This document shows, one piece after another, positions 1 to 60,762 of a DNA stretch of 64,000 nt (position 1 is its first letter; each line of letters starts with the position of its first letter). Location: assembly GCA_024278215.1 (NCBI GenBank), contig JAJRTR010000174.1, positions 23,489 through 87,488 on the forward strand. The letters are read 5' to 3'. Origin of the DNA: a bacterium. Lineage in GTDB: Bacteria; UBP15; UBA6099; JAJRTR01. The translations under genes were made by a program, and so were the position numbers. The notes under the pieces were generated by a model. It did not search any database. It was not told the DNA's origin and worked only from the letters and a program-made list of their open reading frames with translations.

Positions 1-37
1 ATATATTGAGATTTCACTTTTACTTGGAGTATATGCC

Positions 38-3000
38 ATGGTAGCGATAGATTTTTTTCTGCGCAAACGCATTTTCAGTTTCATACTCATGGGACTTGTA
101 ATAGTAATCGGCTATACATCCGTTACCAGACTACATGTCGAAACCCTGCCGGAAGTCAACGCGCCTGTGATCTTTGCCGCCCTGCCGCTGCCCGGCGGCG
201 CGCCCGAGGAGGTCGAGATGCTGGTGACGAACCCGGTCGAGGAAAGACTCGCCGAGATCGAGGGCATCTCAAAGATAACATCTTCATCCTGGCAGAATGT
301 TTCCATTATTATCTGTTTCTTCGACCGTTCGGTGGACCCCGGGGAGAAATATAAAGAATTCCGCAGTGCTATCCAGCAGGTGAAATCGAAATTGCCGTCG
401 GAAGTCCTGGACCCGATTATCGAAGAGATAAGTTTCGAGAATCTCCCGATGATGTTCGTGGGTTTTGCGGACGAAGAGAAAACGCAATACGAGCTGAGCC
501 GCGACGCGGTGAAGCTGAAAAAAGAACTATCTGCCCTGTCGGGCGTAAAAAAAGTGGTAATGAAAGGCGCGACGGATAAGCGCATCGAAGTGCTCGTGCG
601 ACCCGAAAGCCTCAAGAAGTTCGGCGCGGCCCCGATGGCGGATGTTATAGATAAATTCAACGAGATCAACACCAATATGCCCGGCGGCAAACTCAATCTG
701 ATGGGTACGGAATATGTCGTCAGGACAATAGGCAAATTCAGCGGAGTAAATGACCTGAAGAAGATGGTGCTCGGTGTGCATGATGGCGAATCCGTCACGC
801 TGGGAAAGCTCGCGGACGTACATGAGAATTACCCCGAACCGGAAACGATCGTGCATCTGGACGGTAAGCGCGGCGTGGCGCTCGGAATCATGAAGAAACG
901 CGGTTTCGGGACTATAGACGTTGCCGAAAGAGTAAAGGAAGTCCTGAAGAACTATCCTGATGTGGTGATTATGTCCGACTCCTCTGAGTTCATCGAGCAC
1001 CAGATGGGCGACCTGCGGACACACGCGCTCTGGGGCGCATGTCTCGTCATGCTGATTCTTTTTCTGTCGCTCGGGTTCAAAGTTGCCTCTATAGTAACTT
1101 TCGCGCTGCCCATGTCGTTTTTTATGACATTCATGGCAATGAATTTCAAGGGAATGACAATAAATATGGTCACGCTTTTCTCGCTGCTGCTTGCACTGGG
1201 AATGATGGTAGACAACTCGATAGTGGTGTGCGAAAACATAGTGCGGCACCGCTCGCTGGGCGCGAGTCCGCGAACGGCGGCGCTCGAGGGCGCGGGCGAA
1301 GTAAGCTGGCCGATATTTTCATCTACAGCAGCTATCGTTTCGGCTTTTCTGCCTATGGCGTTCTTTCTCGGCGGCCCCATCGGTGAATTCACAAGGCCGA
1401 TCCCCATCGTAGTCACCTTCGCGCTCGTGTCGTCTCTGTTCGTCGCCAATTTTTTCAACCCGATACTGTGCGAAACATTCCTGAAAAACGTAAAACATAC
1501 GTCCGGTGGCCCCGGCAGCGGCACGATAGCCCAGCGCACATACAGGCGCGTCATGGAATGGAGCATCGATCACGGCGGCATAGTAGTTTCCGCCGCGCTG
1601 CTGCTTCTTGTCGGCGCTGTTTTGATAATGGCGCTGAAAATCGTAGGGCTACAGCTTTTCCCGCAGCTCGACACCGCAAAGTTTTATATCGACCTGCGAA
1701 CACCGGCCGGCACAAAGCTTGAAGATACACAAAGGGAAGTTCGAAAGATCGAAAAACTGTTCGACAATTCCAAATATGTCTCCCACTATATCGCCAATAT
1801 CGGCACATCGGGCATGCGCGTCGAGATCGATGACACAGTGGATTTCGGCTCGAATATCGCCCGTTTCATCGTGGACCTCGAGCCCGCGTCAAAAGTCAAC
1901 CGTGGAAACAAGGAAACGATCCATCACTTCAGGGAAGAAATACCGAAGTTGCTGAAAAAGGACACGAAAATCAATTTCATAGAAAAAATGCTCGGACCGC
2001 CCGTTGGCAAGCCGATAAATGTGCAGGTTTCGGGTCCGGAGTTCAAACAGCTCGGAGTTGTCAGGACGGCTATAAACAAGTTTTTGATGAATGAAAAAGG
2101 AGTTATCGACCTCGAGGATGATTTCCCGCAGAAAGTACCGCAGATTGTGCTGGAAGCGAACCAGGCGAATCTGGGCAGGCTCGGTATGACTACCCATGAA
2201 ATAGGCGGTTTCATTTTTCTCGCGCTCACCGGATACAAGATCGGAGACATGGTGATCGACGACGAAAAACATGACGTTTTTCTGAAAATTAAACAGGAAG
2301 GCGGCGGGATGGCCTCGATTCAGAACTCCGATTTTACCATGCCCGACGGCGAAAAAGTCAAGTTCTCCGACCTGCTGTCCTACAAAATAACAAGCGGCCT
2401 GTCGGCAGTCGAACACCACAACGACAAACGCACAGTGAAAATCGAGGCGGGTGTGGCCGCCGGTTATGAAGCTGAACCTGTAATAACAAGGCTCAAGAAG
2501 GCAGTACCTGGAATTCTTGAAAAGTTAAAAAAAGGGGATCCGTCAATAGGGAATGTCGAGGTTTCCTACGAAGGAGAAACGATGCTGCTCGGAGAAGCTT
2601 TCCAGGACCTGCTGACAGCTGTTCTCGTTTCCATCGCGCTCATATACCTGATACTGCTGCTCGAGTTCAGGTCGACTTTTCAGCCGCTGATAATTCTCGT
2701 ATGTATCCCTTATGCGCTGGTGGGCGTAATACTCGGGCTACTGATCATGGGCTACTCTTTCAGCATACTCGCGGGCATCGGACTGCTGTGCCTGATAGGT
2801 ATTGTTGTTAATAATGGGATAATATTTATCGACTACGCGAACCTGCTCCAGGAGCGTGGCAGGAGCCGCAGGGAAGCCTGTCTCGAAGCGTGCGCGACGC
2901 GCCTGCGACCGATCATCCTCACCAAGGCCACCGTCATCCTCGGCATCATGCCGCTGGCGCTGGCCTCGGCTTCGAAAACCCAGTTCTGGAAACCGCTCTG

Positions 3001-3145
3001 CTGGGCGATTATATGGGGACTTCTTATTGCGACGACCCTCACGCTCATTATCATTCCCGTCGTATATTACATCACGGAAGGCTGGCGCAAACATTATTAC
3101 GAAAAAAGGCCCGTCGATGAGCCGGTCATTGAGACTAAGGCATAG
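38..3145 (+). CDS. RND-family efflux transporter permease (AcrB/HAE1-like), 1035 aa
   Basis: 1035-aa ORF with 12-TM RND architecture. Two large periplasmic loops and conserved AcrB-like TM segments (e.g. 'LALGMMVDNSIVVCENI', 'GIVVNNGIIFIDYAN'). TAG stop. Confidence 0.85.
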   Translation: MVAIDFFLRKRIFSFILMGLVIVIGYTSVTRLHVETLPEVNAPVIFAALPLPGGAPEEVEMLVTNPVEERLAEIEGISKITSSSWQNVSIIICFFDRSVDPGEKYKEFRSAIQQVKSKLPSEVLDPIIEEISFENLPMMFVGFADEEKTQYELSRDAVKLKKELSALSGVKKVVMKGATDKRIEVLVRPESLKKFGAAPMADVIDKFNEINTNMPGGKLNLMGTEYVVRTIGKFSGVNDLKKMVLGVHDGESVTLGKLADVHENYPEPETIVHLDGKRGVALGIMKKRGFGTIDVAERVKEVLKNYPDVVIMSDSSEFIEHQMGDLRTHALWGACLVMLILFLSLGFKVASIVTFALPMSFFMTFMAMNFKGMTINMVTLFSLLLALGMMVDNSIVVCENIVRHRSLGASPRTAALEGAGEVSWPIFSSTAAIVSAFLPMAFFLGGPIGEFTRPIPIVVTFALVSSLFVANFFNPILCETFLKNVKHTSGGPGSGTIAQRTYRRVMEWSIDHGGIVVSAALLLLVGAVLIMALKIVGLQLFPQLDTAKFYIDLRTPAGTKLEDTQREVRKIEKLFDNSKYVSHYIANIGTSGMRVEIDDTVDFGSNIARFIVDLEPASKVNRGNKETIHHFREEIPKLLKKDTKINFIEKMLGPPVGKPINVQVSGPEFKQLGVVRTAINKFLMNEKGVIDLEDDFPQKVPQIVLEANQANLGRLGMTTHEIGGFIFLALTGYKIGDMVIDDEKHDVFLKIKQEGGGMASIQNSDFTMPDGEKVKFSDLLSYKITSGLSAVEHHNDKRTVKIEAGVAAGYEAEPVITRLKKAVPGILEKLKKGDPSIGNVEVSYEGETMLLGEAFQDLLTAVLVSIALIYLILLLEFRSTFQPLIILVCIPYALVGVILGLLIMGYSFSILAGIGLLCLIGIVVNNGIIFIDYANLLQERGRSRREACLEACATRLRPIILTKATVILGIMPLALASASKTQFWKPLCWAIIWGLLIATTLTLIIIPVVYYITEGWRKHYYEKRPVDEPVIETKA

Positions 3146-3422
3146 ATATTTAGAAATACTTGTGCGAATTCGTTCATTCCCTGAGGATTTTGTGGACATG
3201 ATCCGAACTTGTCTTTAGCCTGGATTTATAGAAGAAGAAATCCGGAAAATCGTCCCGGACACCTATTCTACGCCCGCTGCGGCGGCGGCTCGGGATCTGT
3301 CGCATACCGGCATTTTGCGAAAGAGTCCGTTGCGGCACCGGCTCCCTCACCTTTCACTTGCCGCACCTTGTATTATAAGTTGTTCTTTGGATATTTGAAC
3401 CCGCGTTTGTGAAATATACGGG

Positions 3423-4751
3423 TTATAATGGCATACCATTGTTACTTGATATGCCTAGTGTTTCGAGGAAAATGTGCTTCTGCGTCTCGATGCTGAATGA
3501 CTCCGGCATCTCACTTTCGATATTGCCGGAAGCACAGGATTCTATGAAAGACGATACCGCCACAGGCCGGTTGCTGTTTGCACTCTCGATATCGACATTG
3601 AAAAACTGCGGTATACCGGATGAAATATTCCAGACTTCGCTTCCCGGCGGCGAGGCTGAAAGTACGGGTTTGCGAGCCCATATATAGTCGAAAAGTTTGC
3701 TTGGTATAGCGGCGTTCGAGACCGACAAAAGAAGCAGTCCGTCGACATCGCTTATGATTTTCAGCATCTCGCTTTTTGCGACCGGTTTCCTTCTGTTGAT
3801 TGACCATCCGCATTTTTTCGCCGATTTTTCGTAATGTCTGATTTCTTTCATATCTGATTCCAGCAGGCCGCCCATGAGTATGATTTTCGCTTTGACTCCT
3901 GCATCTGCGGCACATGCTAAAAGTGGTTCGAGGAGCAGCGACGGCCTGCGCCTGTTGCTCGATCCCATGAATCTGCCTGCGTGCAAAAGAGTTATCGAAT
4001 CCTTTTTCCGGTCTATATTGTCAACTTCTACCGGCGGCGAATCTTCAGGATAACAGTTTGTCAAAACTTCGATCTTTTTTTCCGCCGCAGGGAATCTTTT
4101 CGCGAGCATTTTTTTCCATGTCCCGGAAGTTACGAAAATATGGTGGGCCGATGTCACAATATTCGCTTCGAGCGCGGCTTCGCGCATCCGCTTTTGTCCG
4201 GGTTTCCGGAGTGAAGGTTTCAGTGGTTCGTCGAGCCAGCCGTCGCGCAGGTCGACAACGAGTTTCGCACCTGCGCGGGAGGCGATTGTCCGGGCGGCGA
4301 CATGTGCCGATTCGGGCGGACTCGACGAGATCACCCAGTCTGCTCCGCGCGCATGCTGGATTACATTCTTATCCGCCGCCGCATGCCGCGCCCACACGGC
4401 ACCGGGATCGGGGTTGTATATCTGATACGACGCATTTCTCGCCGCGGCGTATAACATGCTCTTAAGTAAACCGCCGTTCGTGTTGCGCCCCGATGAATCC
4501 GGCGAACTGCTTCCCGCGCCGGACACTGCCACAAACGGGTCTCCGACCGTAATCTCGAATCCCCATTCTGTCTTTGCGACCGAATCATTGCCGCTACCAC
4601 AACTGGCGACGACAACAACTTCGACACCGGCTTCGGAAAGCCAGCGAATGAATCTGCCGCACCTGTAATTGCCGACGTGTCCGTCCCTGTTCATGAACGG
4701 CGCTATCATCACCGCTTTTCCGAATGTGTTCCGGGTTGTATTCGCTGTCAT
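3423..4751 (-). CDS. Glycosyltransferase, GT4 / group-1 family
   Basis: 442 aa with Rossmann GT-B halves. The C-terminal half has a typical GT4 E-x7-E-like region ('GGLLESDMKEIRHYEKSAKK', 'PSKLFDYIWARKPVL'). Confidence 0.65.
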   Translation of the reverse strand: MTANTTRNTFGKAVMIAPFMNRDGHVGNYRCGRFIRWLSEAGVEVVVVASCGSGNDSVAKTEWGFEITVGDPFVAVSGAGSSSPDSSGRNTNGGLLKSMLYAAARNASYQIYNPDPGAVWARHAAADKNVIQHARGADWVISSSPPESAHVAARTIASRAGAKLVVDLRDGWLDEPLKPSLRKPGQKRMREAALEANIVTSAHHIFVTSGTWKKMLAKRFPAAEKKIEVLTNCYPEDSPPVEVDNIDRKKDSITLLHAGRFMGSSNRRRPSLLLEPLLACAADAGVKAKIILMGGLLESDMKEIRHYEKSAKKCGWSINRRKPVAKSEMLKIISDVDGLLLLSVSNAAIPSKLFDYIWARKPVLSASPPGSEVWNISSGIPQFFNVDIESANSNRPVAVSSFIESCASGNIESEMPESFSIETQKHIFLETLGISSNNGMPL

Positions 4752-4847
4752 ATTTCCTTATCCGGTCGAGACCGATTCTTTATTATAGTTTTAATAAGAT
4801 CACGATATCGGGCCTTGTTTTGACGAATCGAAAAACATTACTGTACC

Positions 4848-4918
4848 GAGCCGATTGCAAAATTCTGATTCGGCTGCGGTCGGCTGCTATTGTCCATAGC
4901 TGCGTTGTCGGCACAAAT
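4848..4918 (-). repeat. Truncated copy (~70 bp, one terminal half) of MITE-like repeat family 1
   Basis: 'gagccgattgcaaaattctgattcggctgcggtcggctg...' matches the reverse complement of the right end of the full copies at 14868-15047 and 45760-45940. Confidence 0.6.
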
Positions 4919-5004
4919 TACCATTTAGACTCAACACGGACTTTTTACGCCGGAATCAAATGTACAAGTTCGCAATGAAAGTCAGCACTTAAGTCCGGGG
5001 TATT

Positions 5005-5394
5005 TCATTTCTTCAACACTGCGCTTGATATCGTTTTATACATCATATCTATATTGAGTGGTTTATGAAGGATGTCAAATACGCCCTCTGCTTTTATTTC
5101 CTTGATGATATTTTCTTCTTTGCCCAGGGCCGTCATCAATATTATCGGTGTCTCAAATGTTATCTTCCTCAGTTCTCTTATGGTTTTAATACCACTCATA
5201 GGACGCATAAGATAATCCACAATTATCAGACAGTATCGGTTTCTTTTCACTGCTTCGACAGCTTCATAGCCGCTGTTGACGGTTTGAACATTATAGCCAT
5301 CGAGTTCCAGCATATCTTTCAAAGCCTCGCAAATATCGACATCGTCGTCGACAATCAGAATTGACTCTGCGGATGTCATATCATTCGTCCTCAC
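5005..5394 (-). CDS. Single-domain response regulator (CheY-like receiver)
   Basis: 'ILIVDDD...' acidic pocket, conserved D in 'LIIVDYLMRPMSG' and K in 'ILMTALGK'. TGA stop. Overlaps the upstream kinase by 4 bp (ATGA). Confidence 0.8.
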   Translation of the reverse strand: MRTNDMTSAESILIVDDDVDICEALKDMLELDGYNVQTVNSGYEAVEAVKRNRYCLIIVDYLMRPMSGIKTIRELRKITFETPIILMTALGKEENIIKEIKAEGVFDILHKPLNIDMMYKTISSAVLKK

Positions 5395-7553
5395 TTCTCG
5401 ACGGGCAGTTTTATTGTTATATCAGTGCCTTCTCCCCTGCGAGACACTGCCTTTACAGTTCCTCCGTGCTGTTCGACAATCATGCCGACAATAGTTAATC
5501 CGAATCCTATTCCGTATGTTTTCGTAGTAAACAAAGGCTCAAAGACTTTCTCCTCGGTATTCTCCGGCAGGCCACCGCCCGTATCCGATATTGTAACAAG
5601 TGCGTACTTCGCGCCTCCCGAATCCACAGTCGATACAGTCAACGTCAATTTGCCTGCAACCTCCATCGCCTGCAACGCATTCTTAATAATATTATTTATT
5701 GCAATTTCCATCTGTTTGCGGTCAAGTTCAACGAAAAGGTCATCTTCGGGAAACCGCTTCACGATCTCTATGCTTTCGGGTATCTGCGCGGATTCGATTG
5801 TACTCTCGATAAAGCCGGAAATCTCAATAGATTTGAATACAGGGCTTTCCCTCCTCGTCAGCTTCATAATGCTTTCAATGATGTCAGCCATGCGATCGAC
5901 CTGGAAAACTATCTTATCCAGATGCCTCAGTTGTTTATCTCCAATGTCCTTAACGGTTCGTTTCAGGAAATGCGCGGAAAGGGAGATCACGCCGAGAGGA
6001 TTGCGTATCTCGTGCGCAAGGCTGCCTGAGAACTTGCCGAGGATAGCCAGCCGCTCGGACGCGATAAGTTTTTCCTGGGCTTTCTCGAGTTCTTCGGTTC
6101 TCTTCTCCACGAGTTCCTCGAGTTGATCTCTATACAGGTTAAGCTCTCGCTCAGCTCTTTTCTTCTCTGTTATGTCCCTTATGACAGTGATAATCTGTGT
6201 AATCTTATTATCGTTATATACAGGTATCTTTCTCGTTTCTGTTATTATTTCGTCGTTCCCAACAACATTACATTCCTCGCTTGTCAGCACCTCTCCGGTT
6301 CTAAAAACGCGAAGGTATTCTTCCTTAATGTTCTCCGTCAGAAAAGAATATATTTCGAAAATATTCTTCCCGACAATTTCCGTCTCGAGCCCGAGTTCCA
6401 GATTCCATTGTTTTATCGAGTTGTTGATAATAACAATATTGAAGTTTCTGTCAATTACATGAATAGCATCGCTCATGGAATTGATAGCGCTTCTGTACCT
6501 GGCTTCAGAATCGTTAGCAGCCCGCAGAGCTCTTTTTCGCTCGTTCTGGACAAGGATTTTTGCTACCTGATCCGCGATTTCACCGGCGAAGGAAATCTCG
6601 TCCGATGTCCATTTGCGTCTTTCGCCGACATGCTCGAAACTGACAACACCCATCACCCGGCCACGCAACCTTATTGCCGCATCGAGTACGGACTCTACCC
6701 TGTGGCGCTTGAAATAAGTGTTCTTGAACTCGAATGTGCGCGGGTCGCTGTTTGCGTCTTGTGCGTCGACAGCTCTTTCAAGCATTATCGCTTTGAAGTA
6801 TTCGGGATACTCCTTTGCCATGAATACTTCGCCCTCGGAAAATCTCTTTGTCGAGCAGTCATATATACAAACGCCGGTCAGTCGTTCTTCCTCTTCATCA
6901 AAAAGCCACGCGCCGCTTTTTTGCACGTCGAGCGTCTCGCCCGCTATCTTCGTAATCGTCTCCAGAGCTTTCTTCATGTCGGCTTCAATAACGGATTCGG
7001 CTGAAAGTATATCAATTATCGCAGCGTGGAATTTGCGTATTCGCAAGTCTCTTCTTTCGTTATAATCATCCGTATTCCTTCGCTCCGTGACATCAAGAAA
7101 AAAACCGGTATTGTATTCGATTCCATCAATTATGATATTTCCCATGTCGATATCAGTGAAAAAAACTTCACCATTTTTTCTGATACATGGAACATCGGAC
7201 GCCAATCGCACCTTTCCCTCTGCCTGGTCTTTAAACAGAGACAATACATAGTCGACATCCTTTTCAGGATGAATATCTCTCACATCAAGGCGCAGCAGCT
7301 CTTCCGCCGTGTATCCGAACATTTCGCAAGCGGCTTTGTTGGCATAATAGAACTGCCTGTTCGCGACATCCGCAACGAGAATTGCTTCGACGGCGCTGTC
7401 TAATATCGTCTTGTATCTCTCGGCCTCCACACGCAGAGCCTGATTCTGTATATGTAGTTCATCTGTTGAATCCGAATGATTATCGGATATTTCAGGTTTC
7501 GACAGGAGAACGTTTTGGCTTTCGGTACCGTCGATACTTTTGTGTTCACTCAT
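5391..7553 (-). CDS. Sensor histidine kinase with PAS/GAF input domains
   Basis: HisKA H-box 'LAHEIRNPLGVI'. HATPase_c G-boxes 'ISDTGGGLP' and 'GIGFGLTIV'. N-terminal PAS-like segments. Translationally coupled to the receiver at 5005-5394. Confidence 0.8.
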   Translation of the reverse strand: MSEHKSIDGTESQNVLLSKPEISDNHSDSTDELHIQNQALRVEAERYKTILDSAVEAILVADVANRQFYYANKAACEMFGYTAEELLRLDVRDIHPEKDVDYVLSLFKDQAEGKVRLASDVPCIRKNGEVFFTDIDMGNIIIDGIEYNTGFFLDVTERRNTDDYNERRDLRIRKFHAAIIDILSAESVIEADMKKALETITKIAGETLDVQKSGAWLFDEEEERLTGVCIYDCSTKRFSEGEVFMAKEYPEYFKAIMLERAVDAQDANSDPRTFEFKNTYFKRHRVESVLDAAIRLRGRVMGVVSFEHVGERRKWTSDEISFAGEIADQVAKILVQNERKRALRAANDSEARYRSAINSMSDAIHVIDRNFNIVIINNSIKQWNLELGLETEIVGKNIFEIYSFLTENIKEEYLRVFRTGEVLTSEECNVVGNDEIITETRKIPVYNDNKITQIITVIRDITEKKRAERELNLYRDQLEELVEKRTEELEKAQEKLIASERLAILGKFSGSLAHEIRNPLGVISLSAHFLKRTVKDIGDKQLRHLDKIVFQVDRMADIIESIMKLTRRESPVFKSIEISGFIESTIESAQIPESIEIVKRFPEDDLFVELDRKQMEIAINNIIKNALQAMEVAGKLTLTVSTVDSGGAKYALVTISDTGGGLPENTEEKVFEPLFTTKTYGIGFGLTIVGMIVEQHGGTVKAVSRRGEGTDITIKLPVEK

Positions 7554-7831
7554 ATCAATACCAATCGAATATTATTCAAGCGAAAAAATAAATTATATAG
7601 TATTATCTATCTTCGTATTATACACGTTTTTCAATATCCTACCGGAATATGTGCGCAAATAATTGAAAGCGCCGCAGGATTGGGAGAGTCCAATTCATTC
7701 ACTATGGGCACAACAACAAATATATAGAGTTGCCGAGATACGCAAGAAACATACGATCTGTATTTTGTTAAGGAGGGCTCAACTTCGCTACAAAAATCAT
7801 CACAAAATCACCCTGAAAGGCCTGTTCACTA

Positions 7832-8963: not shown

Positions 8964-9517
8964 AGTTCCGCCTCCATTATCTCCATGCGGTTGTGCTGTG
9001 TCTGACAAATTCTATATGTATTTGTTGAACATGTCATCATTTTTGATTATTTTGATTTTAAGTAGCAGAGTCGACAAAAAACACTTATACTGTTGTCAGG
9101 TAGCCTTGTATCGTGCGTATTAAATGGAATATGCCTACCTATACTATATAGTATAATTACCTATCGCAAGGAATATCATTTGCAGGTTTCAGCAATTATG
9201 TCAGGTGATTGATATGTAAAATGTCGTGAAGATGGATGATGATGAGTTCGTTGCTGAAGGCAGACTGTAATATAAAAGATACAGGACAGCAAAGAATAGC
9301 GGTTGAATAATCGCGATATCAAAAAGCATGATTAAAGTTAAAAACCAAGAAAAAGCGGAGATAAACAGCAATATTTTGTAATACATGCAGCCTGAATCAC
9401 AGCACGAGTCAAACAGTATGAAATGAGAATAGCGAAAATGCAAGGCGGACTTGACTTTGAATAAACGATTTGATATAAATTTGTGGGCTGAAAAAATGAA
9501 AATCGGGCTATATTAAG

Positions 9518-9546
9518 TTGACAAAGTATTTGACAAGAGGTATATT
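9518..9546 (+). promoter_or_regulatory. Putative sigma70-type promoter of the dsr operon
   Basis: TTGACA (9518-9523), 17-nt spacer, TATATT (9541-9546). About 200 nt upstream of dsrD in an AT-rich gap. Confidence 0.4.
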
Positions 9547-9750
9547 ACATTAACTAAAAAGCAGTGATGGGTAAGACTGTGGCAGGAATACAGTTGCAGA
9601 AGCATCTTCACGGAAGCAGGCTAAGTCATTCCAACAGCAAGCCGACAGGAGAACGATCGTGTTGAAAGCTGCGCACCGGCATTTTGATGCTCGGTTTTGC
9701 GCATTAATGGCAGATGGCTCGAAAGAAGAACAAATATAAAGTAAAGGGAG

Positions 9751-10011
9751 GTGAATAAAGTGAACGAGGATATTAAGAAGGCAATATTCGGGTTTTATGA
9801 AAAGAAAAGAAAGACGAAGACACGATTTCCGATGAAAGATATTGTGACATACCTGAAGGATTTCAACAGGAGGGAAGTAAAAACAACGTTGATGGAGATG
9901 GCCAACGCTGGAGATCTTAAAGTGTGGTCGAGTGGAAGCAGCTCATATTATATGATGCCTGAGGATTTCGAGAAACTGATTAAAGCCGGCGCCGAGGAAA
10001 TGGAAGAATAG
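9751..10011 (+). CDS. dsrD: DsrD-like small winged-helix protein
   Basis: '...REVKTTLMEMANAGDLKVWSSGSSSYYMM' matches the DsrD signature ('...YWSSGSTTMYGL' in Desulfovibrio). The tracked GTG at 9751 abuts the SD GGGAGG, so the true start is more likely GTG 9760. Confidence 0.7.
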   Translation: MNKVNEDIKKAIFGFYEKKRKTKTRFPMKDIVTYLKDFNRREVKTTLMEMANAGDLKVWSSGSSSYYMMPEDFEKLIKAGAEEMEE

Positions 10012-10212
10012 GTTCCGGGTCAGAATCAAGTGATTTCTCAAGCGGCATGGATGTGGAATAAAGAAGATCAGGAAAATGTAGGTCGCCGAAGTGCGTTCGG
10101 GGCGGGTGAAGCAAGTGGAAAACGATTCCGCAAGCGGTTGAGAGGTACAGGAACGAAAAAGGCGATCTTTAGAAATACAGAATAATTCGGAAAAGATAGA
10201 AAAAAAACGGAG

Positions 10213-11439
10213 GTGAATCTTTTGGCCGAAGAAAGCAAAACACCATTGCTTGACGAGCTGGAAAAAGGTCCGTGGCCGAGCTTCGTAACAGACATTAAGA
10301 TGGCTGCGAAGAGAAAACCGGAAACAATGGATCTTCTGAATCAGCTTGAACTGTCCTATGAAGAGAAAATAGGACACTGGAAACACGGCGGTATCGTAGG
10401 AGTCATGGGATATGGCGGAGGAGTCATCGGAAGGTATTCCGACAGGCCCGACCTGTTCCCCGGTGTGAAGGATTTCCACACACTGCGAGTAAACATGCCG
10501 ACCGGGTGGTTTTATACCACCAAAGCGCTCAGGACGATTTGTGATATCTGGGACAAACGAGGAAGCGGAATGACAAACTTCCACGGTTCCACAGGCGACA
10601 TCATTCTCCTGGGAACAGACACAGATCAACTGCAGCCTTTATTCGACGATCTGTCGGAAGCGGGATTCGATCTCGGCGGTTCCGGCTCGGACCTCAGGAC
10701 ACCGAGCGCATGTTGCGGCCCGGCCAGGTGTGAGTGGGCATGTTTCGACAATCTTCAGATGTGTTACGACATGACCATGGAATACCAGATGGAACTGCAC
10801 AGGCCGATGTGGCCCTACAAGTTCAAATTCAAATTCTCCGGCTGCCCCAATGATTGTGTTGCCGCTGTCGCACGCGCCGACATGTCCTTTATCGGCACCT
10901 GGAGAGACGACATCCAGGTCAACGACGACGAGATCGCCGCATATGCTGAAGGCGGACTCGACATTCAGGCCGATGTCGCCGACAATTGCCCGACAAAGTG
11001 CATCAGCTACGATGCGTCGAGCAAAAAGATCAAGATCGACAACAGCAACTGTGTAAGGTGCATGCACTGCATCAACGTTATGCCCAAAGCGCTCAAACCC
11101 GGCAAAGAACGCGGTTGCACACTGATGGCCGGCGCGAAGGCCCCGATCCTTATGGGTGCCCGCCTTTCGTCAGTTATCGTTCCATTCGTACCAAAAGAAA
11201 AACTCGAACCGCCCTACGAATGGTTCAAAGATTTTATCGACAGGCTCTGGGAATGGTGGGACGAAAATGGAAAGTTCCGCGAAAGATTCGGAGAACTGCT
11301 CGACAGAGTAGGAATGAGGGTTTTCCTGAAAGCTATGGACATGGAACCCATTCCGCAGATGATCGAGGCGCCGAGAACAAATCCGTTCGTGTTCTGGTGG
11401 CCTGAAGATGTTGAAACTTCTGGAAAGGAGGCAAAATAA
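10213..11439 (+). CDS. dsrA: Dissimilatory sulfite reductase alpha subunit
   Basis: Extensive DsrA identity by eye: '[10 protein letters not shown]', '[20 protein letters not shown]', 'FHTLRV', '[14 protein letters not shown]', '[17 protein letters not shown]', 'CVRCMHCIN', 'GAKAPIL'. The tracked GTG abuts the SD, so the real start is probably TTG 10222. Confidence 0.9.
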
Positions 11440-12524
11440 TGCCGGCAAAAACTGACATTGGTCCTCCGTATTTTAAAGATTTTCTACCCAAAGTCATACT
11501 GGACAACTATGGCAAATGGGACTATCACGAAATCGTGAAACCCGGCGTGCTAATGCACGTGGGCGAGAGTGGAGACAAACTCTGGAGTGTGCGTGTAGGC
11601 GGCGCCAGATTGATCTGCACAGACCGTGTTCGCGAATACTGCGACATCGCAGACGAATTCTGCGACGGCCATTTCCGGTTCACGAGCCGTCACAATGTTG
11701 AATTCCTCGTTGCCGACGAAGCGAAGCTCGAACCCCTGATTAAAGTTCTCACCGATAAGGGATACCCCATCGGTGGAACGGGCAACGGAATCACCAGCAT
11801 CGTCCACACGCAGGGATGGGTTCACTGCCACACTCCCGCGACCGACGCCTCCGGCCCGGTCAAGGCCGTCATGGACGAACTTATCGACTACTTCACAGGC
11901 GTAAAGACACTGCCCGCGCAGTTGCGCATCGCCCTGGCCTGCTGCCTGAACATGTGCGGTGCCGTACACTGCTCTGATATCGCCATTCTCGGTATCCACA
12001 GGAAACCGCCGAAACCCGATGTCAACAAACTGCCTAAGGTCTGCGAAGTTCCTTCGACAATCTCATCGTGCCCGACTTATGCCATAAAACCCAAGAAACT
12101 CGAAGACGGCACAAAATCGATCGAGATCAATGATGAAAGGTGCATGTACTGCGGCAACTGCTACACGATGTGCCCGGCAATGCCGCTGGCAGACCCCGAA
12201 GCCGATGGAATCGCTATCTGGGTAGGCGGCAAAGTATCAAATGCACGCTCAGGCCCGAAATTCTCGAAACTCGCCATACCGTTTCTGCCCAACAACCCGC
12301 CCAGGTGGCCGGAAGTTGTCGACGCTATCAAGAATATCGTCGAGTTATATGCCGCAGACGCACGCAAGTATGAAAGGGTAGGCGATTGGATCGAAAGAAT
12401 CGGCTGGGAAACCTTCTTCGACAAAACAGGCATTCCCTTCACCGATATGCACATCGACGATTTCGACGGTGGCGCGCCGCCCCCGCATATCGCTTTCAGA
12501 ACAACGGCCCAGTTCCGGTTCTGA
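11439..12524 (+). CDS. dsrB: Dissimilatory sulfite reductase beta subunit
   Basis: '[13 protein letters not shown]', '[33 protein letters not shown]', '[26 protein letters not shown]', ferredoxin insert '[15 protein letters not shown]', '[14 protein letters not shown]'. AAGGAGG SD with ATG overlapping the dsrA stop. Confidence 0.9.
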
Positions 12525-12549
12525 TGATTGCCGGGAGGCAAATTGTATT

Positions 12550-13974
12550 GTGAATACACCGCGAGTACTCATAGCAGGCCTCCGCGGAGGCTCCGGGAAG
12601 ACTCTCTGCAGCACGGGTTGCGTTGCAGCCCTTGCGCGCCGTGGTCTTTGCGTGCAGCCATATAAAAAGGGGCCGGATTACATCGACGCCGCATGGCTTG
12701 GCCGCGCGGCGGGACGCCCCTGCTACAATCTTGATACCTTTATGACAGGCGAGGACCGTATATCACGGTCCTTCGCCTCAAGGGTGTCGGACGCGGATAT
12801 TGCTCTCATCGAGGGTAACCGCGGCTTGTTCGACGGCATGGATACCGACGGCAGCCACAGCACCGCGAAGCTCGCCGCATTACTCGAATCCCCCGTTGTT
12901 ATCACGGTCGACTGCACCAAGAGCACACGCACTGTCGCGGCCTTTGTTAAAGGCTGCATCGATTTTGATCCCGATATAAACATCGCCGGCATCATCCTTA
13001 ATCGCGTTGCGGGCATAAGGCACCAGAAAGTAGTTACTTCTTCTATCGAGAAGTACTGCGGCGTTCCCGTCCTCGGCGCTATACCAAAACTGAAGTTCCT
13101 CCCGTTTCCGGAGCGTCATATGGGCCTCGTTCCCCCGCAGGAACACAGCCTGCTCGAGGACGCAATAAACCAAACAGCCGACGTTATCGAACAATGTGTC
13201 GATCTCGACGTGCTGATTGATATCGCAAACCGGGCTGCACCTCTGCCTGCATGGGTTCAGGGGCACATATTAACGGAAAGCAGCCGGACTGCCGCGCCTG
13301 TTATAGGTGTAGTTCGTGATTCTGCATTCCAGTTCTACTACCCCGAGAATATCGAAGAGCTGGCCGCTCGTGGTGCGCGCATTGTGGAAACCAGTCCGTT
13401 GAAAGAAGAACGGCTTCCCGAAGTGGACGCACTATACATCGGCGGTGGATTCCCCGAGACTCATGCGCGGCAACTCGCGTCCAATGCAGGCTACAGGCGT
13501 TCAGTCAGGGATGCGGTCGAAGATGGTCTTCCTGTTTATGCGGAATGCGGCGGCGCAATGTTTCTTGGAAAAGAAATTGTCGTCGACGGTACAGCATACC
13601 CGATGGCAGGTGTTTTCAGGGCGACTTTTGGAATGGATAAAAAACCCCAACGGCACGGTTACACAATACTCGAAACTCAGAAACGCAACCCGTTCTTCAA
13701 AATGGGCACTGTATTTCGTGGTCACGAATTTCATTATTCGAAGATAATCGGGTGGGACGGCAATGAACCGCCGATGGCATTCCGTGTCAAAAGGGGATAT
13801 GGTATGAACGGCAGACACGATGGTTTGTGCTACATGAACACTGTCGCTCTATACACCCATGTACATGCACTCGGCGTAGATGAATGGGCAGAATTCTTTG
13901 TGAATTCCGCAAAGAACTCTGCTGCCGGAAGGATGATGGACAATCGAACAGTCCATGCCGCAAAGAGCAGTTGA
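12550..13974 (+). CDS. dsrN: DsrN-like siroheme amidase (CobB/CbiA cobyrinic acid a,c-diamide synthase family)
   Basis: CbiA P-loop 'RVLIAGLRGGSGKT' and the C-terminal glutamine amidotransferase ('YAECGGAMFLG', catalytic Cys), sitting right after dsrB. The tracked ORF starts at 12469 inside dsrB. GTG 12550, preceded by GGGAGG, is the likely start. Confidence 0.75.
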   Translation: MNTPRVLIAGLRGGSGKTLCSTGCVAALARRGLCVQPYKKGPDYIDAAWLGRAAGRPCYNLDTFMTGEDRISRSFASRVSDADIALIEGNRGLFDGMDTDGSHSTAKLAALLESPVVITVDCTKSTRTVAAFVKGCIDFDPDINIAGIILNRVAGIRHQKVVTSSIEKYCGVPVLGAIPKLKFLPFPERHMGLVPPQEHSLLEDAINQTADVIEQCVDLDVLIDIANRAAPLPAWVQGHILTESSRTAAPVIGVVRDSAFQFYYPENIEELAARGARIVETSPLKEERLPEVDALYIGGGFPETHARQLASNAGYRRSVRDAVEDGLPVYAECGGAMFLGKEIVVDGTAYPMAGVFRATFGMDKKPQRHGYTILETQKRNPFFKMGTVFRGHEFHYSKIIGWDGNEPPMAFRVKRGYGMNGRHDGLCYMNTVALYTHVHALGVDEWAEFFVNSAKNSAAGRMMDNRTVHAAKSS

Positions 13975-14065
13975 CGAGATAATGAAATTTGAAATATGTG
14001 TTATACTAAATCGTAGCGGAAGTTATGATTTTCGCACGTAAAATCTTTCAAGGGAGTACAGAATA

Positions 14066-14383
14066 ATGGCAACATTAAATCTTGGTGGAAAAGAAGTAGA
14101 AATTGACGAAGATGGCTTCATCCAGGACCCTGAAGTATGGGACGAAGATGTAGCAATAGACCTTGCCGCCACTGAAGGCGTCGACGAATTGGGCGAAGAC
14201 CATTGGAAACTTGTCCACTATCTGCGAGATTATTACCTGAAATTCGGGATCGCCCCGATGATTCGCAAACTCTGCAAAGAGACAGGATTCGATCTCAAGT
14301 ATGTTTACGAGATGTTCCCGTCCGGACCGGCCAAAGGTGCCTGCAAAGTAGCAGGACTGCCCAAACCCACAGGATGCGTCTGA
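14066..14383 (+). CDS. dsrC: DsrC (TusE/DsrC family) with the two conserved C-terminal cysteines
   Basis: 105 aa ending '...GACKVAGLPKPTGCV', the DsrC hallmark. 'DPEVWDEDVA', 'HWKLVHYLRDYY'. Confidence 0.85.
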   Translation: MATLNLGGKEVEIDEDGFIQDPEVWDEDVAIDLAATEGVDELGEDHWKLVHYLRDYYLKFGIAPMIRKLCKETGFDLKYVYEMFPSGPAKGACKVAGLPKPTGCV

Positions 14384-14540
14384 TTTTCAGGTATTCGCTG
14401 TAATTACGCAATTCTAAAGAGTCCTGTAAATGGGACGTATTTAATATTTGATTATTATTAAATCTTTTTGTGTTGATAAAATGGTCACAATGTGTGGCCA
14501 TTTTTATTTTGACCTGTAATCAATCATCTGCATTCGTTGC

Positions 14541-18074: not shown

Positions 18075-19292
18075 TCAACTTTCGATCATTTCCATAAAAC
18101 CCTGCAAGCGTGTCAGGAGTTGCCCCTCGGAGTAATTGCGGCTGTCGACACAGTCCACATCGAGGTTTATCATCGGCACCCCGATCTTCGCAAGGTCCGA
18201 TTTGATGATCTCACGCACACCGCAGTTCTGGCGGCATCCCCAGTGCGAAGGATTAACAGCACCGTCGATTGCATAGTCTTCGCATAACTTCTTCAATATA
18301 TCTATCCTGTGCCCGACTTTTCCGTTCAGCGGGTGTGAGATCAATCGTATGGCAAGCGCCTCGAGCGGCCTGTCCTCGTCCATATCATCCCAGTAGATGT
18401 AGTTAAGTTCATCAATTACAATCTTCGCGTTGTAGTTTTCCTGCAGGTAGTCGATGAGTTTTGTCTTATACTGAATGCGGTTCTGGACCCAGAGGAGCCG
18501 GATGTCTTCCTTCGGCAGGTCGGCGCAACCGTTTTTCAAGTGCTGCTTCGCTTCGTCGAGGAAAACCTGTGCGACTTCGACACCTTCCTTTGTTCCCAGC
18601 AGCAGCGCGAATATTATCTGAAAATTCTTCAGAGTGTCGCTTGTTATCGGTGCGGGCTTTTGCGTGCAAAGTTCATACAATTCACGAATTATCCGTGTCG
18701 CTTCATTCGAGTAGCGAATCGACTCCTTCATTCTGTCCGGGTCGTATTTTTTGCCTGAAAATTCTGTGATATAATCGATCATACCTCGAAATTGCTTAAC
18801 GAGATAATCGGTTTTTTCCCTTGTGACGGGAGGATAGGGTATGTCGATGACAAAAGTTTCGAGCCCGATATTTTCGCCGAGATTCAGAATAGTTTTCAGT
18901 CCGCCGTCGCAGGGTGCCGTTGCGCCTATGAGGAGTTCCGGCCTGCCGATAAAACTGTCGAGCGCGGCGCCGACAAGGGCTCTGTGATATGCGCAGCCAT
19001 CGGGTGAATATCCGAACCGCTCGGCTTTCCGGAGAAACTCCGGTGCCTGGCCTGTGCCCGCGAGCATCGCGCCGATATACTCGACATAGACCGCGCCCAC
19101 ATCCATAGCCTGGAATATCTCGAACGGCATGAACACGCCGGTCCACGCGCTCGCATATTTTTTGTCGAAAAGCTTCCGGCCAATCCTGGCTGTTTCATAG
19201 ACAAGTAATCGGCGGGCGGTTTTCTTATCTTTCAGTTTCTTTTCAAGCGCGTCGACTACACTGTCGAAGTAAATTTCAATTGGTGTTGTCAC
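18075..19292 (-). CDS. 2-hydroxyacyl-CoA dehydratase family subunit (HgdB/HadC/BcrB-like)
   Basis: 405 aa with conserved Cys positions of the HgdB-like Fe-S dehydratase beta family ('ATAPCDGG', 'HWGCRQNC'). 17-bp overlap with the partner gene upstream. Confidence 0.65.
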   Translation of the reverse strand: MTTPIEIYFDSVVDALEKKLKDKKTARRLLVYETARIGRKLFDKKYASAWTGVFMPFEIFQAMDVGAVYVEYIGAMLAGTGQAPEFLRKAERFGYSPDGCAYHRALVGAALDSFIGRPELLIGATAPCDGGLKTILNLGENIGLETFVIDIPYPPVTREKTDYLVKQFRGMIDYITEFSGKKYDPDRMKESIRYSNEATRIIRELYELCTQKPAPITSDTLKNFQIIFALLLGTKEGVEVAQVFLDEAKQHLKNGCADLPKEDIRLLWVQNRIQYKTKLIDYLQENYNAKIVIDELNYIYWDDMDEDRPLEALAIRLISHPLNGKVGHRIDILKKLCEDYAIDGAVNPSHWGCRQNCGVREIIKSDLAKIGVPMINLDVDCVDSRNYSEGQLLTRLQGFMEMIES

Positions 19293-20394
19293 GTGGTATC
19301 GTCCCCCTGGTTTCTTTCAGCATCTCGATAAATGCCTGCACCCGTGTCGCTGCCTGGCCGGCACCTTGCGAATAGTCGCTTTCGAGAAACAGCGCCTTCA
19401 CGTTCATTTCGTCGAGCGCCGTCCTGAGGCGCGGCACATCGTACAGGTGCGTGTCGCAGAATTTCAATGTGTAGACTATCACCCCGTCGGGGTCCTGATG
19501 CGCGACAAGTTCTTTAACTACATCCACAGCAGTTTTCGATGCGGCCATACGCGAGCAAGGTGATTTCGTCAGATATGCTCTCGCCAGTGATCTGCAAAAC
19601 GGTTTGTCCGGTCTGGGCTCCGGAATATTCCAGAAACGGCGGCCCGGGCATACCTCGTCCATCATAACGTGCCCGCCATATTTCTCGACAAGTCGCAGGA
19701 AACCGGGGTCGTCCATCATATTGCCGTAAAGCAACAATCTTGGTCCGACGGGAAACTCCCTGTACTTTATTATCGACTCCTCCTCGTCGAGGAGTTTCAG
19801 CGCGAGCGGCGCGGGCATACGCAGAACCTGCAGCATGACTTCCATCACATAGGAACCTTTCACCTTCGGCGGTTGTCTGCGCCGCGCACCGTCATAACCT
19901 CTGAGCCGCGCACGCAAATACCTGTACAGATCCATCGCGTCAAGTAATTTTTTATCGTCTATTTCTTTTTTGAATGTCGTCTCTATCCAATTTTTAAGTT
20001 CGTCGATTTCACCTGCGAATCTCTCGATATGTTCATCACCATCTTTCTTGGGTACCTGAAGCAGGAAAACCGGTATGCCGGGCTTTCTGCTTCTGACAAT
20101 TTCGTATAGACGCCTCTGTGCGTCGCAGCCGTTTGTCAGGACGAGCGCGTCGAGGAAATCGAGCGTGCCCGATTCGAACTCATCCACCAACGACTTGATG
20201 AACGGGCAAATATTTGTGTGCATCAGAGAATCACCCAACGATGTGGGGCCGTGTGCGCCTGAAATTCTCACAGGTGTCAGTTCCGCTGCCTCGAATATTT
20301 CGAGCGGTGTGTATGTGCAGAACCAGCCTACTGCCGGTCTGCCGTAAGATTTTATCTTCTTCATTTCTTTTTCAGTAAATTGTGTTCCGGCCAT
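19276..20394 (-). CDS. 2-hydroxyacyl-CoA dehydratase family subunit (HgdA/HadB/BcrC-like)
   Basis: 'WFCTYTPLEIFEAAELTPVRI', 'ICPFIKS', 'TNGCDAQRR', 'KFCDTHLYD'. The tracked ORF extends to 20532 through a MITE copy. The Met at 20394 ('MAGTQFTEKEM') is the likely start. Confidence 0.65.
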   Translation of the reverse strand: MAGTQFTEKEMKKIKSYGRPAVGWFCTYTPLEIFEAAELTPVRISGAHGPTSLGDSLMHTNICPFIKSLVDEFESGTLDFLDALVLTNGCDAQRRLYEIVRSRKPGIPVFLLQVPKKDGDEHIERFAGEIDELKNWIETTFKKEIDDKKLLDAMDLYRYLRARLRGYDGARRRQPPKVKGSYVMEVMLQVLRMPAPLALKLLDEEESIIKYREFPVGPRLLLYGNMMDDPGFLRLVEKYGGHVMMDEVCPGRRFWNIPEPRPDKPFCRSLARAYLTKSPCSRMAASKTAVDVVKELVAHQDPDGVIVYTLKFCDTHLYDVPRLRTALDEMNVKALFLESDYSQGAGQAATRVQAFIEMLKETRGTIPRDNTN

Positions 20395-20412
20395 CTTGTC
20401 CTCGCTTCCTAT

Positions 20413-20596
20413 AGAGAGCCAATTGCAAAATTTCGATTCGGCTGCGGTCGGCTGCAATTGTCCATAGCCGCGTTGTCGGCACAAAATCATCCTCAACGTA
20501 CTCGGCGAGTTCGCCTGCGGGGGATTTTGCACCTCCGCCTTGCTTCTGAAAAATTTCGTTCGGCCTCGCTACGAACATAATTTTGCAATTGGCTCT
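20413..20596 (-). repeat. MITE-like repeat family 1, full copy in inverted orientation
   Basis: The reverse complement aligns end to end with 14868-15047 and 45760-45940, including both terminal inverted repeats. Confidence 0.7.
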
Positions 20597-24146: not shown

Positions 24147-24632
24147 ATGAAGATCAACACACGTGCAAGGTACGCGCTAAGACTCATGATTGACATGGCG
24201 CTGAATACGACTCCGGATAAACCTCTCAATCTCAAGGATATATCAGAGAGGCAGGGTATATCTAAAAGGTATCTAGGCCAGATTATCGTTTCACTCAGGA
24301 ACAATTCACTTGTAAAGGGAATGCCGGGTAAGAGTGGCGGTTACATTCTGGCACGCAAACCCGAGGAAATAACTATCAGGAGAATATTTGAGGCTGCTCT
24401 AGGCCCGATAAATATGGTCGATTGCGTTATGAATCCTGAAAGTTGCATCAAGTCGGATTATTGCGAATGCAGGCCTGTGTATGAGTTGATAAACAGCAGG
24501 GTAACGGAGTCGCTGAGTGAATTCACACTCGCGGACCTCGCGCTCGCGTCGAAAAATGCCGGGCACAGAGCGATTCAGGATGATGCACAGGTTGATTTCG
24601 GAATAGACCTGTGCAGTTCACCCGGCAAATAG
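24147..24632 (+). CDS. Rrf2-family (IscR-like) transcriptional regulator
   Basis: 'RARYALRLMIDMA', HTH 'LKDISERQGISKRYLGQIIVSLRNNSLV', Cys ligands 'CVMNPESCIKSDYCECR'. Immediately upstream of dsrMK. Confidence 0.8.
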   Translation: MKINTRARYALRLMIDMALNTTPDKPLNLKDISERQGISKRYLGQIIVSLRNNSLVKGMPGKSGGYILARKPEEITIRRIFEAALGPINMVDCVMNPESCIKSDYCECRPVYELINSRVTESLSEFTLADLALASKNAGHRAIQDDAQVDFGIDLCSSPGK

Positions 24633-24732
24633 ACTGTAGGCGACATATTTATACTTTCATGCCGGTTTGTTCATGGAACCGGATCAGGTGAATTTTTAAA
24701 TAAATGGAAAAATCAAATTAAGACAGGAGGCT

Positions 24733-25677
24733 TTGATGGGACCTATACTGCACCTATTGACCTACGTATGTATGATCGTTTTTGTTGTGGCGGTTGTGCA
24801 TAAATTCAACGAGTACAACAAAATGCCGATGCATCTGCGATGGGAACTCTACCCGGTTGCCCACGAGGGGAAGAAGGCGAGCTATGGCGGTTCGTATTTT
24901 GAAGAAGTCGACTGGTGGGAAAAAGAACGCACCGTAGACATGGGTACGGAAATGAAGCAGATGTCGCAGGAGATTTTATTTCTTGCCGCCGTGAAGGAAC
25001 ACAACCCGAAACTGTGGCTTCGGACATTTCCGTTTCATTTCGGCATGTACAGCCTGATCGGTTTTCTTATGCTTCTTATAGCGGGGGCGCTGCTGGGTGT
25101 GGCCGGTGTCGATATGAGCGGAGGCGGCTTCGGAACTGTGGTGGGCACACTGACAGCCATCGCAGGCTTTGCAGGCGCTGTGCTCGGCGCAATCGGTGCG
25201 CTCGGACTGATCGCGCGCAGGCTTTTCGACGAAGACCTCAAGGACTTCACAAAACCGTCGGATATTTTCAACCTTGTTTTCCTGCTGTCGGTTTTCCTGC
25301 TTATGGCGGCAACAGGAGCGTCCGATCCCTATTTCACCGGACTTCGCGAATATGTTCAGAGTATTATCACTTTCAATATAAACTACGTTCCGTCGAACCC
25401 GGCTGCTGTCGGAGCGATCGCGCTGGCATCGCTTGTGGTCGCATACATTCCTCTCACGCACATGGCGCACTTTGTCGTTAAATATTTCACCTACCACAAC
25501 ATCCGATGGGACGACAGGCCCAACGTGCCCGGTAAGGACCCGATGGGCGATCAGATTGCCGAAGTTCTTCAGTATGAAATAACATGGGCTGCGAGCCACA
25601 TAAACCCAAACGGCACGAAGAAGACCTGGGCCGAAGCAGCCACGGAAAATCCAGAAGAGTTAAAGGAGAGCAAATAA
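24733..25677 (+). CDS. dsrM: DsrM-like NarI-type membrane cytochrome b
   Basis: 314 aa, 5-6 TM with conserved His ('VVHKF', 'PLTHMAHFVVKYFTYH'). Directly precedes dsrK with a 1-nt gap. Confidence 0.65.
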   Translation: MMGPILHLLTYVCMIVFVVAVVHKFNEYNKMPMHLRWELYPVAHEGKKASYGGSYFEEVDWWEKERTVDMGTEMKQMSQEILFLAAVKEHNPKLWLRTFPFHFGMYSLIGFLMLLIAGALLGVAGVDMSGGGFGTVVGTLTAIAGFAGAVLGAIGALGLIARRLFDEDLKDFTKPSDIFNLVFLLSVFLLMAATGASDPYFTGLREYVQSIITFNINYVPSNPAAVGAIALASLVVAYIPLTHMAHFVVKYFTYHNIRWDDRPNVPGKDPMGDQIAEVLQYEITWAASHINPNGTKKTWAEAATENPEELKESK

Positions 25678-25678
25678 C

Positions 25679-60760: not shown

Positions 60761-60762
60761 CT

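Follow-up and report, generated by a model that had tools for sequence, protein, structure and literature searches.

DsrAB is a siroheme/[4Fe-4S] enzyme that reduces sulfite. DsrD's role as an allosteric activator of this enzyme has been described in Archaeoglobus fulgidus and Desulfovibrio vulgaris (PMC8794893), DsrD is regarded as both a marker and an activator of reductive DsrAB (PMC8794893, PMC10591310), and its gene normally lies downstream of dsrB (Ferreira et al., 2022; PMC8794893). In the canonical cluster dsrABD(N)(C)(TMKJOP) of Desulfovibrio, Zixibacteria, Chloroflexota and Acidobacteriota, dsrD accordingly stands between dsrB and dsrN. We analyzed a 64-kilobase (kb) stretch of the 108-kb contig JAJRTR010000174.1 (the window, whose positions serve as coordinates throughout) that carries a different arrangement: five consecutive open reading frames (ORFs) on the + strand, between 9.5 and 14.5 kb, follow each other in the order dsrD-dsrA-dsrB-dsrN-dsrC. 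The locus encodes the same proteins as the canonical cluster, and neither their cofactor motifs nor the chemistry inferred for them differ; its DsrA is 58-70% identical to that of lineages with canonical clusters. It differs in that dsrD lies upstream of dsrA, and in that dsrT, dsrJOP and a contiguous dsrMK are missing. We consider it very probable that the segment 9518-14512 is one five-gene operon for the cytoplasmic core of sulfite reduction by the Dsr pathway, and that its host is an uncultured bacterium from a seldom sampled lineage, which may be Latescibacterota. The gene order and, essentially, the gene coordinates agree with a first-pass annotation of this DNA, several claims of which are taken up below.

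All five genes are intact, and their identities are backed by family, motif or fold tests. The dsrA gene (10222-11439, 405 amino acids (aa)) starts at the TTG at 10222 after a GGAGGTG, and its product is identical to a deposited protein; its stop codon overlaps the ATG start of dsrB (11439-12524, 361 aa) in the sequence TAATG. DsrA matched TIGR02064 with 558 bits (cut-off 393) and DsrB matched TIGR02066 with 510 bits (cut-off 341.5), each model being covered nearly end to end. DsrA aligned with structure 3MM5_A at E=3e-163, including the siroheme/[4Fe-4S] and ferredoxin cysteine motifs, and DsrB with structure 2V4J_B at E=5e-150, with identical cysteine motifs. In alignments to 3MM5_A, 2XSJ_A and 2V4J_B, the DsrA motifs CxxxxxCxxxC, CPNDC, CPT... 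and CVRCMHC coincide with conserved cysteines, and all cluster- and siroheme-binding cysteine motifs are retained in the two subunits. The dsrN gene (12550-13974, 474 aa) starts at the GTG at 12550, with the ribosome-binding site GGGAGG before it. Its product, a CobB-like glutamine amidotransferase of the kind expected for siroheme amidation, matched CobB-type a,c-diamide synthase models with 430-446 bits and contains CbiA and GATase_3 domains. The model libraries used hold no DsrN-specific model, and this CobB-type protein is assigned as DsrN by its context; the same slot between dsrB and dsrC is kept in L081, L084, L086 and L087 (L-numbers such as L001 or L081 denote individual comparison loci or contigs). 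DsrC (14066-14383, 105 aa, ATG start at 14066) matched TIGR03342 with 117.6 bits (cut-off 53.5) and PF04358 with 128.5 bits. Its C-terminus, ...CKVAGLPKPTGCV, retains both functional cysteines, one at the penultimate residue and one 10 residues earlier.

The gene placed first, dsrD (9760-10011), starts at the GTG at 9760, preceded by the ribosome-binding site GGGAGGTG, and its 83-aa product equals public protein P0247. By family, the product is a winged-helix allosteric activator of DsrAB. It matched Pfam PF08679 with 51 bits against a gathering cut-off of 24.2, and the Desulfovibrio DsrD crystal structure 1UCR with E=1.2e-6. An AlphaFold model built with nine homologues reached a mean predicted local distance difference test (pLDDT) score of 86 with the topology H-H-H-E-E-H, and its four best fold matches in the PDB were entries of DsrD itself, 1UCR and 1WQ2, with template modeling (TM) scores of 0.57-0.81. 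The motif described for DsrD is YWSSGSTT (PMC8794893); the window protein carries the variant VWSSGSSS, of which the WSSGS core is invariant in the homologue alignment. The first-pass annotation had noted a DsrD-like ORF from this WSSGS motif, and the profile, structure and fold matches agree in indicating that the product is a genuine DsrD.

It had also described DsrA and DsrB as shortened, which does not hold. The best 120 DsrA homologues measure 390-421 aa, most commonly 398, and the DsrB proteins of the relatives 352-362 aa; the models TIGR02064 and TIGR02066, matched almost end to end, have lengths of 402 and 341 positions. DsrA and DsrB are 418 and 366 aa long in Archaeoglobus, and 437 and 381 aa long in Desulfovibrio. 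The Desulfovibrio subunits are longer because of insertions specific to that lineage: alignments to solved structures place two insertions of ~13 and ~15 residues in the 437-aa DsrA of Desulfovibrio and Desulfomicrobium, and an N-terminal extension with small loop insertions in their DsrB (381-386 aa). The window subunits thus have lengths that are usual in this region of the DsrAB tree.

The position of dsrD was compared across genomes by scanning one genome per GTDB species with the window DsrA and analyzing the 80 best loci, in which dsrA, dsrB, dsrD, dsrN and dsrC were located by phmmer and an iterated DsrD profile. The closest DsrA among these species representatives, from a Phycisphaerae metagenome-assembled genome (MAG; L001), is only 70% identical to that of the window. 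In 60 of the 80 loci dsrD directly follows dsrB, as the first-pass annotation had assumed for the normal case and in agreement with Ferreira et al. (2022; PMC8794893). It stands directly before dsrA on the same strand in three loci and before dsrA in divergent orientation in one; three further loci have it elsewhere, seven have no dsrD within ~8 kb, and the remaining six were uninformative. The three loci with dsrD in front have exactly the order dsrD-A-B-N-C, and they belong to Desulfacinum hydrothermale DSM 13146 (L070), a Desulfacinum MAG and a Syntrophobacterales MAG (L053, L077). Desulfacinum belongs to the same order as Thermodesulforhabdus, and Larsen, Lien and Birkeland published in 2001 on a dsr operon of 'novel organization' in Thermodesulforhabdus norvegica, reportedly with dsrD upstream. 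The dsrD-first order is therefore a real minority order that already occurs in cultured sulfate reducers and is not new.

The order is also conserved within the lineage of the window. Four further contigs have dsrD before dsrA: L083 (Logan; DsrA 93% identical to that of the window), L081 and L082 (JGI; 84%), and L088 (an NCBI MAG of Candidatus Latescibacterota; 81%); the full order D-A-B-N-C is covered only in L081. These contigs bear directly on the suspicion that the order is an artefact of assembly or binning, in which fragments carrying dsrD and dsrABNC were joined into a chimera. The window comes from a metagenome-type contig, and its G+C content shifts from 0.44 upstream to 0.52-0.53 in the operon, as such a join might produce. 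The four further contigs, from JGI, Logan and NCBI samples, nevertheless show the same order of dsrD and dsrA, and L083 even has the release factor gene prfB as a neighbor in common with the window. In our view the independent contigs already refute this explanation, and we give it practically no credence.

A neighbor-joining tree of concatenated DsrAB (77 loci, 744 columns, 100 bootstraps) grouped the window with L081 and L082 at 100%, and these next with L084, again at 100%. The Desulfacinum clade, likewise with 100% support, lies apart from the window, beside sequences of Desulfobulbia and Desulfocapsaceae, and lineages with the order A-B-D lie between the two. Because the DsrAB tree keeps the two dsrD-first clades apart, the order originated on at least two occasions. 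The window and the Syntrophobacterales-type dsrDABNC loci thus share a layout of independent origin, common descent having failed the test of the tree, in which each forms its own fully supported clade. The shared layout extends beyond the five-gene order and strand, since the Desulfacinum-type loci, like the window, have a non-coding dsrD-dsrA spacer of ~150-210 nucleotides (nt) and carry dsrN and dsrC directly after dsrB. The proteins differ more, with only 61-63% identity for DsrA and DsrB and 30% for DsrD. The first-pass annotation had suggested that gene order and subunit lengths could mark an unusual lineage. The lineage is indeed very sparsely sampled, but neither feature sets it apart, the order being found in Desulfacinum hydrothermale and the two Syntrophobacterales MAGs and the lengths being normal.

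The closest DsrAB proteins outside the window's subclade, 70-75% identical, are those of L084-L087 and of the Phycisphaerae MAG L001. Like the window, these loci have the order B-N-C with no dsrD between dsrB and dsrN. L084, L085, L086 and L087 (DsrA 72-74% identical) run A-B-N-C, with dsrD missing from the surrounding 6-8 kb; within this wider clade, a dsrD in front is confined to the subclade whose DsrA is at least 81% identical to that of the window. In two of these four loci dsrT-dsrM-dsrK follows dsrC, and qmo-like genes stand upstream in two; both features, dsrTMK after dsrC and qmo, are missing from the window. In L085 and L087 (positions 1-5900), qmoABC-like genes and a fusion of a pyridine-nucleotide-disulfide oxidoreductase with a rhodanese directly precede dsrABNC-T-M-K, with no dsrD nearby. 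In L001, a dsrD on the - strand (7412-7708) lies in divergent orientation immediately upstream of dsrABNC. Around this clade alone, the placement of dsrD with respect to dsrAB is thus variable: after dsrB, before dsrA, divergent, or absent nearby. Such genes would therefore escape surveys and annotation pipelines that seek dsrD solely behind dsrB.

The DsrD protein of the subclade is itself rarely seen. A profile search with the window subtype returned only five proteins at least 63% identical among 5.8 billion, and the next matches, 35-41% identical, include those of L089 and L090, both from canonical A-B-D clusters. Acquisition of dsrD from a foreign source was considered and rejected as unnecessary. 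The DsrD proteins of the window clade are 18-39% identical to those of other lineages, within the range of other lineage pairs at equal DsrAB distance; since DsrD divergence tracks DsrAB divergence, a relocated and co-evolving dsrD suffices. We infer that the dsrD-first order is a lineage-specific rearrangement without demonstrated functional consequence.

The predicted promoter of the operon lies upstream of dsrD. The best sigma-70-like match between 8800 and 15200, agreeing at 11 of 12 positions, is TTGACA-17-TATATT at 9518-9546 on the + strand, with the -35 element at 9518-9523, a 17-nt spacer and the -10 element at 9541-9546. When the regions upstream of dsrD in the four closest relatives were aligned, GTTGACAAAG and TATA.TA were invariant against an average column identity of 62% over the whole alignment; across these relatives the -35 element is invariant at all six positions and the -10 element at five of six, and the flanks have diverged. 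L081, an 84% relative, has the same 11/12 site upstream of dsrD, again the best of its region. The first-pass annotation had proposed a candidate sigma70 promoter with a leader of ~200 nt, and the comparison lends support to the promoter hexamers; the position of the putative promoter implies a 5' leader of ~205 nt (9553-9759). The leader sequence is loosely conserved among relatives, and its folding energy is no better than that of shuffled sequences (z=+0.57). An Rfam search gave no family match in the leader or in the dsrD-dsrA spacer, its only two matches being chance hits below threshold within coding sequence. Another promoter-like element, TTGACT-17-TATAAA at 9451-9479, lies ~65 nt upstream of the main one. 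It is near-identical in L083, all four relatives conserve the part resembling a -10 element, and it possibly serves as a tandem promoter or as a regulator site.

Between dsrD and dsrA lies a spacer of 210 nt (10012-10221). Neither a promoter-like site matching at least 9 of 12 positions nor a terminator consisting of a hairpin and T-run was found in this spacer, in the window or in L081. The five genes would therefore be read as one transcription unit, starting at ~9553 with the ~205-nt leader. An intrinsic-terminator-like hairpin of 12 pairs with a T-run (14478-14504; annotated as 14478-14512 on the + strand) follows 95 nt past dsrC, and in L081 a stronger one, of 16 pairs and likewise with a T-run, stands behind dsrC. 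A different transcriptional layout can be envisaged, in which dsrD forms a unit of its own and dsrABNC are read from a separate promoter, without sigma-70 consensus, inside the 210-nt spacer; dsrD and dsrA would then be merely adjacent. This would account for the retention of a long spacer (179-241 nt) in all four relatives, and for a conserved stem within it, closed by GGTCGCC (10081-10087) and GGCGATC (10161-10167) and followed by TCTTT. It would also suit the wider clade L084-L087, where dsrABNC runs without an upstream dsrD, so that dsrA must ancestrally have had its own promoter. The missing promoter-like and terminator-like sites speak against it, as does the folding of the spacer, which equals that of shuffled sequence (z=-0.02), and strong conservation is seen in one promoter only, that in front of dsrD. 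We regard separate units as unlikely, and a single five-gene operon as the better description.

L083 has the spacer stem too, as does L088 with one mismatch; three to four sequences show it, few covariations support it, and it is confined to the window's own subclade. The idea that it is an ancestral leader of dsrA was rejected, because only the window and L083 show the pattern in front of dsrA. Its other matches sit at unrelated positions, none of them ahead of the dsrA of relatives without an upstream dsrD.

The set of genes favors a reductive role for DsrAB, as the first-pass annotation had argued. The direction is probably reductive in view of the genuine DsrD, the two-cysteine DsrC, the neighbors in the DsrAB tree and the absence of dsrEFH and dsrL, as of dsrT and dsrJOP, from the 64 kb of the window. 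All tree neighbors within the 77 loci, a set without oxidative or archaeal outgroup, are DsrD-bearing lineages or cultured sulfate reducers. In the proposed scheme, DsrAB would reduce sulfite and DsrC, as the two-cysteine co-substrate, would leave as the trisulfide. DsrN would amidate the siroheme, and DsrD, by analogy with the characterized proteins, would bind DsrAB and activate it allosterically. DsrC would then be re-reduced by a membrane module of the DsrMK type, encoded either by a DsrMK-like pair at 24.7-27.3 kb or elsewhere in the genome.

That pair belongs to a distal trio on the + strand (24147-27298) of candidate partners, comprising an Rrf2 regulator (24147-24632), a DsrM-like membrane cytochrome b matching Pfam Nitrate_red_gam (24733-25677) and a DsrK-like CCG iron-sulfur protein with Fer4_8 and CCG domains (25679-27298), followed by a PAS histidine kinase. 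The best match of the DsrK-like protein is NF045796 with 314 bits, below the curated cut-off of 400 bits, and the protein is only 26-29% identical to the operon-linked DsrK of L086 and L087. The true DsrMK partner may lie outside the window.

Several points weigh against an operon for sulfite respiration as set out here. The promoter and leader, and joint transcription of dsrD and dsrA across their 210-nt spacer, are predictions from sequence. The DsrMK-like pair at 24733-27298, with its DsrK below the curated cut-off, is an uncertain candidate partner, the DsrAB tree contains no oxidative or archaeal outgroup, and the taxonomic placement rests on one named MAG (L088, Latescibacterota). No sat, aprAB or qmoABC was found in the 64-kb window, and the real electron acceptor may be sulfate, sulfite, thiosulfate or an organosulfonate. 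Finally, some organisms that have both a DsrAB of the reductive type and a DsrD, such as Desulfurivibrio and cable bacteria, disproportionate or oxidize sulfur (PMC6018796, PMC13293266), and therefore the direction cannot be read from the genes alone. The same five genes might thus serve sulfur disproportionation or the oxidation of sulfide or sulfur, a possibility with which the lack of sat, apr and qmo in the window is compatible. The presence of DsrD and the absence of dsrEFH and dsrL from the 64 kb run counter to it. So does the arrangement in the closest wider relatives L085 and L087, whose qmoABC-like genes directly upstream of dsrAB are typical of sulfate reducers, and the neighborhood in the window resembles that of an anaerobic heterotroph, with a glycyl-radical enzyme, 2-hydroxyacyl-CoA dehydratase-like genes and polysaccharide lyases. 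We judge such an oxidative or disproportionating role improbable, more so than separate transcription of dsrD, and retain sulfite or sulfate respiration as the probable function of the operon. The locus would add one more uncultured lineage able to respire sulfite; understanding of the pathway itself is unchanged, and nothing indicates an altered mechanism.

The lineage is rare and very sparsely sampled, and is possibly Latescibacterota. No rRNA or tRNA gene was found in the window, and the named homologues of its release factor 2, about 60% identical, are spread over many phyla. Its other contents, among them a C25 peptidase, a heparinase-like lyase, glycosyltransferases and a 3835-aa FG-GAP protein, fit Latescibacterota but do not prove that assignment. 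The searched text of a 2023 census of dsrAB genomes (PMC10591310) mentions neither Latescibacterota nor Planctomycetota, and in the literature searched we found no description of a Dsr pathway in Latescibacterota. We tentatively raise the possibility, which we hold to be less likely than its opposite, that the window represents an undescribed sulfite- or sulfate-respiring lineage (Latescibacterota or an allied candidate phylum) with its own DsrD subtype (VWSSGSSSYYM) and an independently re-invented dsrD-first operon. If so, a promoter-proximal dsrD and a conserved spacer of ~200 nt could uncouple the expression levels of DsrD and DsrAB.

Further genes of the window were recorded alongside the dsr locus. 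The prfB gene for release factor 2 (8963-7832, - strand) carries a classic programmed +1 frameshift cassette, AGGGGG-TAT-CTT-stop-C, at 8903-8888. Its in-frame stop is TAA and not the canonical TGA, and CTTTGAC does not occur at the site; frame 0 terminates at codon 25, and reading in the +1 frame leads into an ORF of 337 aa. A 990-aa glycyl-radical enzyme, extended at its N-terminus by ~200 aa, is encoded beside its activating enzyme (57788-61665). It was considered as an isethionate sulfite-lyase that might supply sulfite, an idea that is unsupported: PFL2/glycerol dehydratase models scored 360-390 bits and IslA, the weaker match, 259-264 bits, and no equivalog cut-off was reached. Two adjacent HGD-D genes (2-hydroxyglutaryl-CoA dehydratase D-component; 18075-20532, - strand) indicate an anaerobic radical dehydratase or a benzoyl-CoA-reductase-like system. 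The FG-GAP protein is encoded by a single ORF at 31064-42571 with ~41 FG-GAP/VCBS-type repeats, and the G+C content of this region, 0.57-0.59, is above that of the rest of the window.

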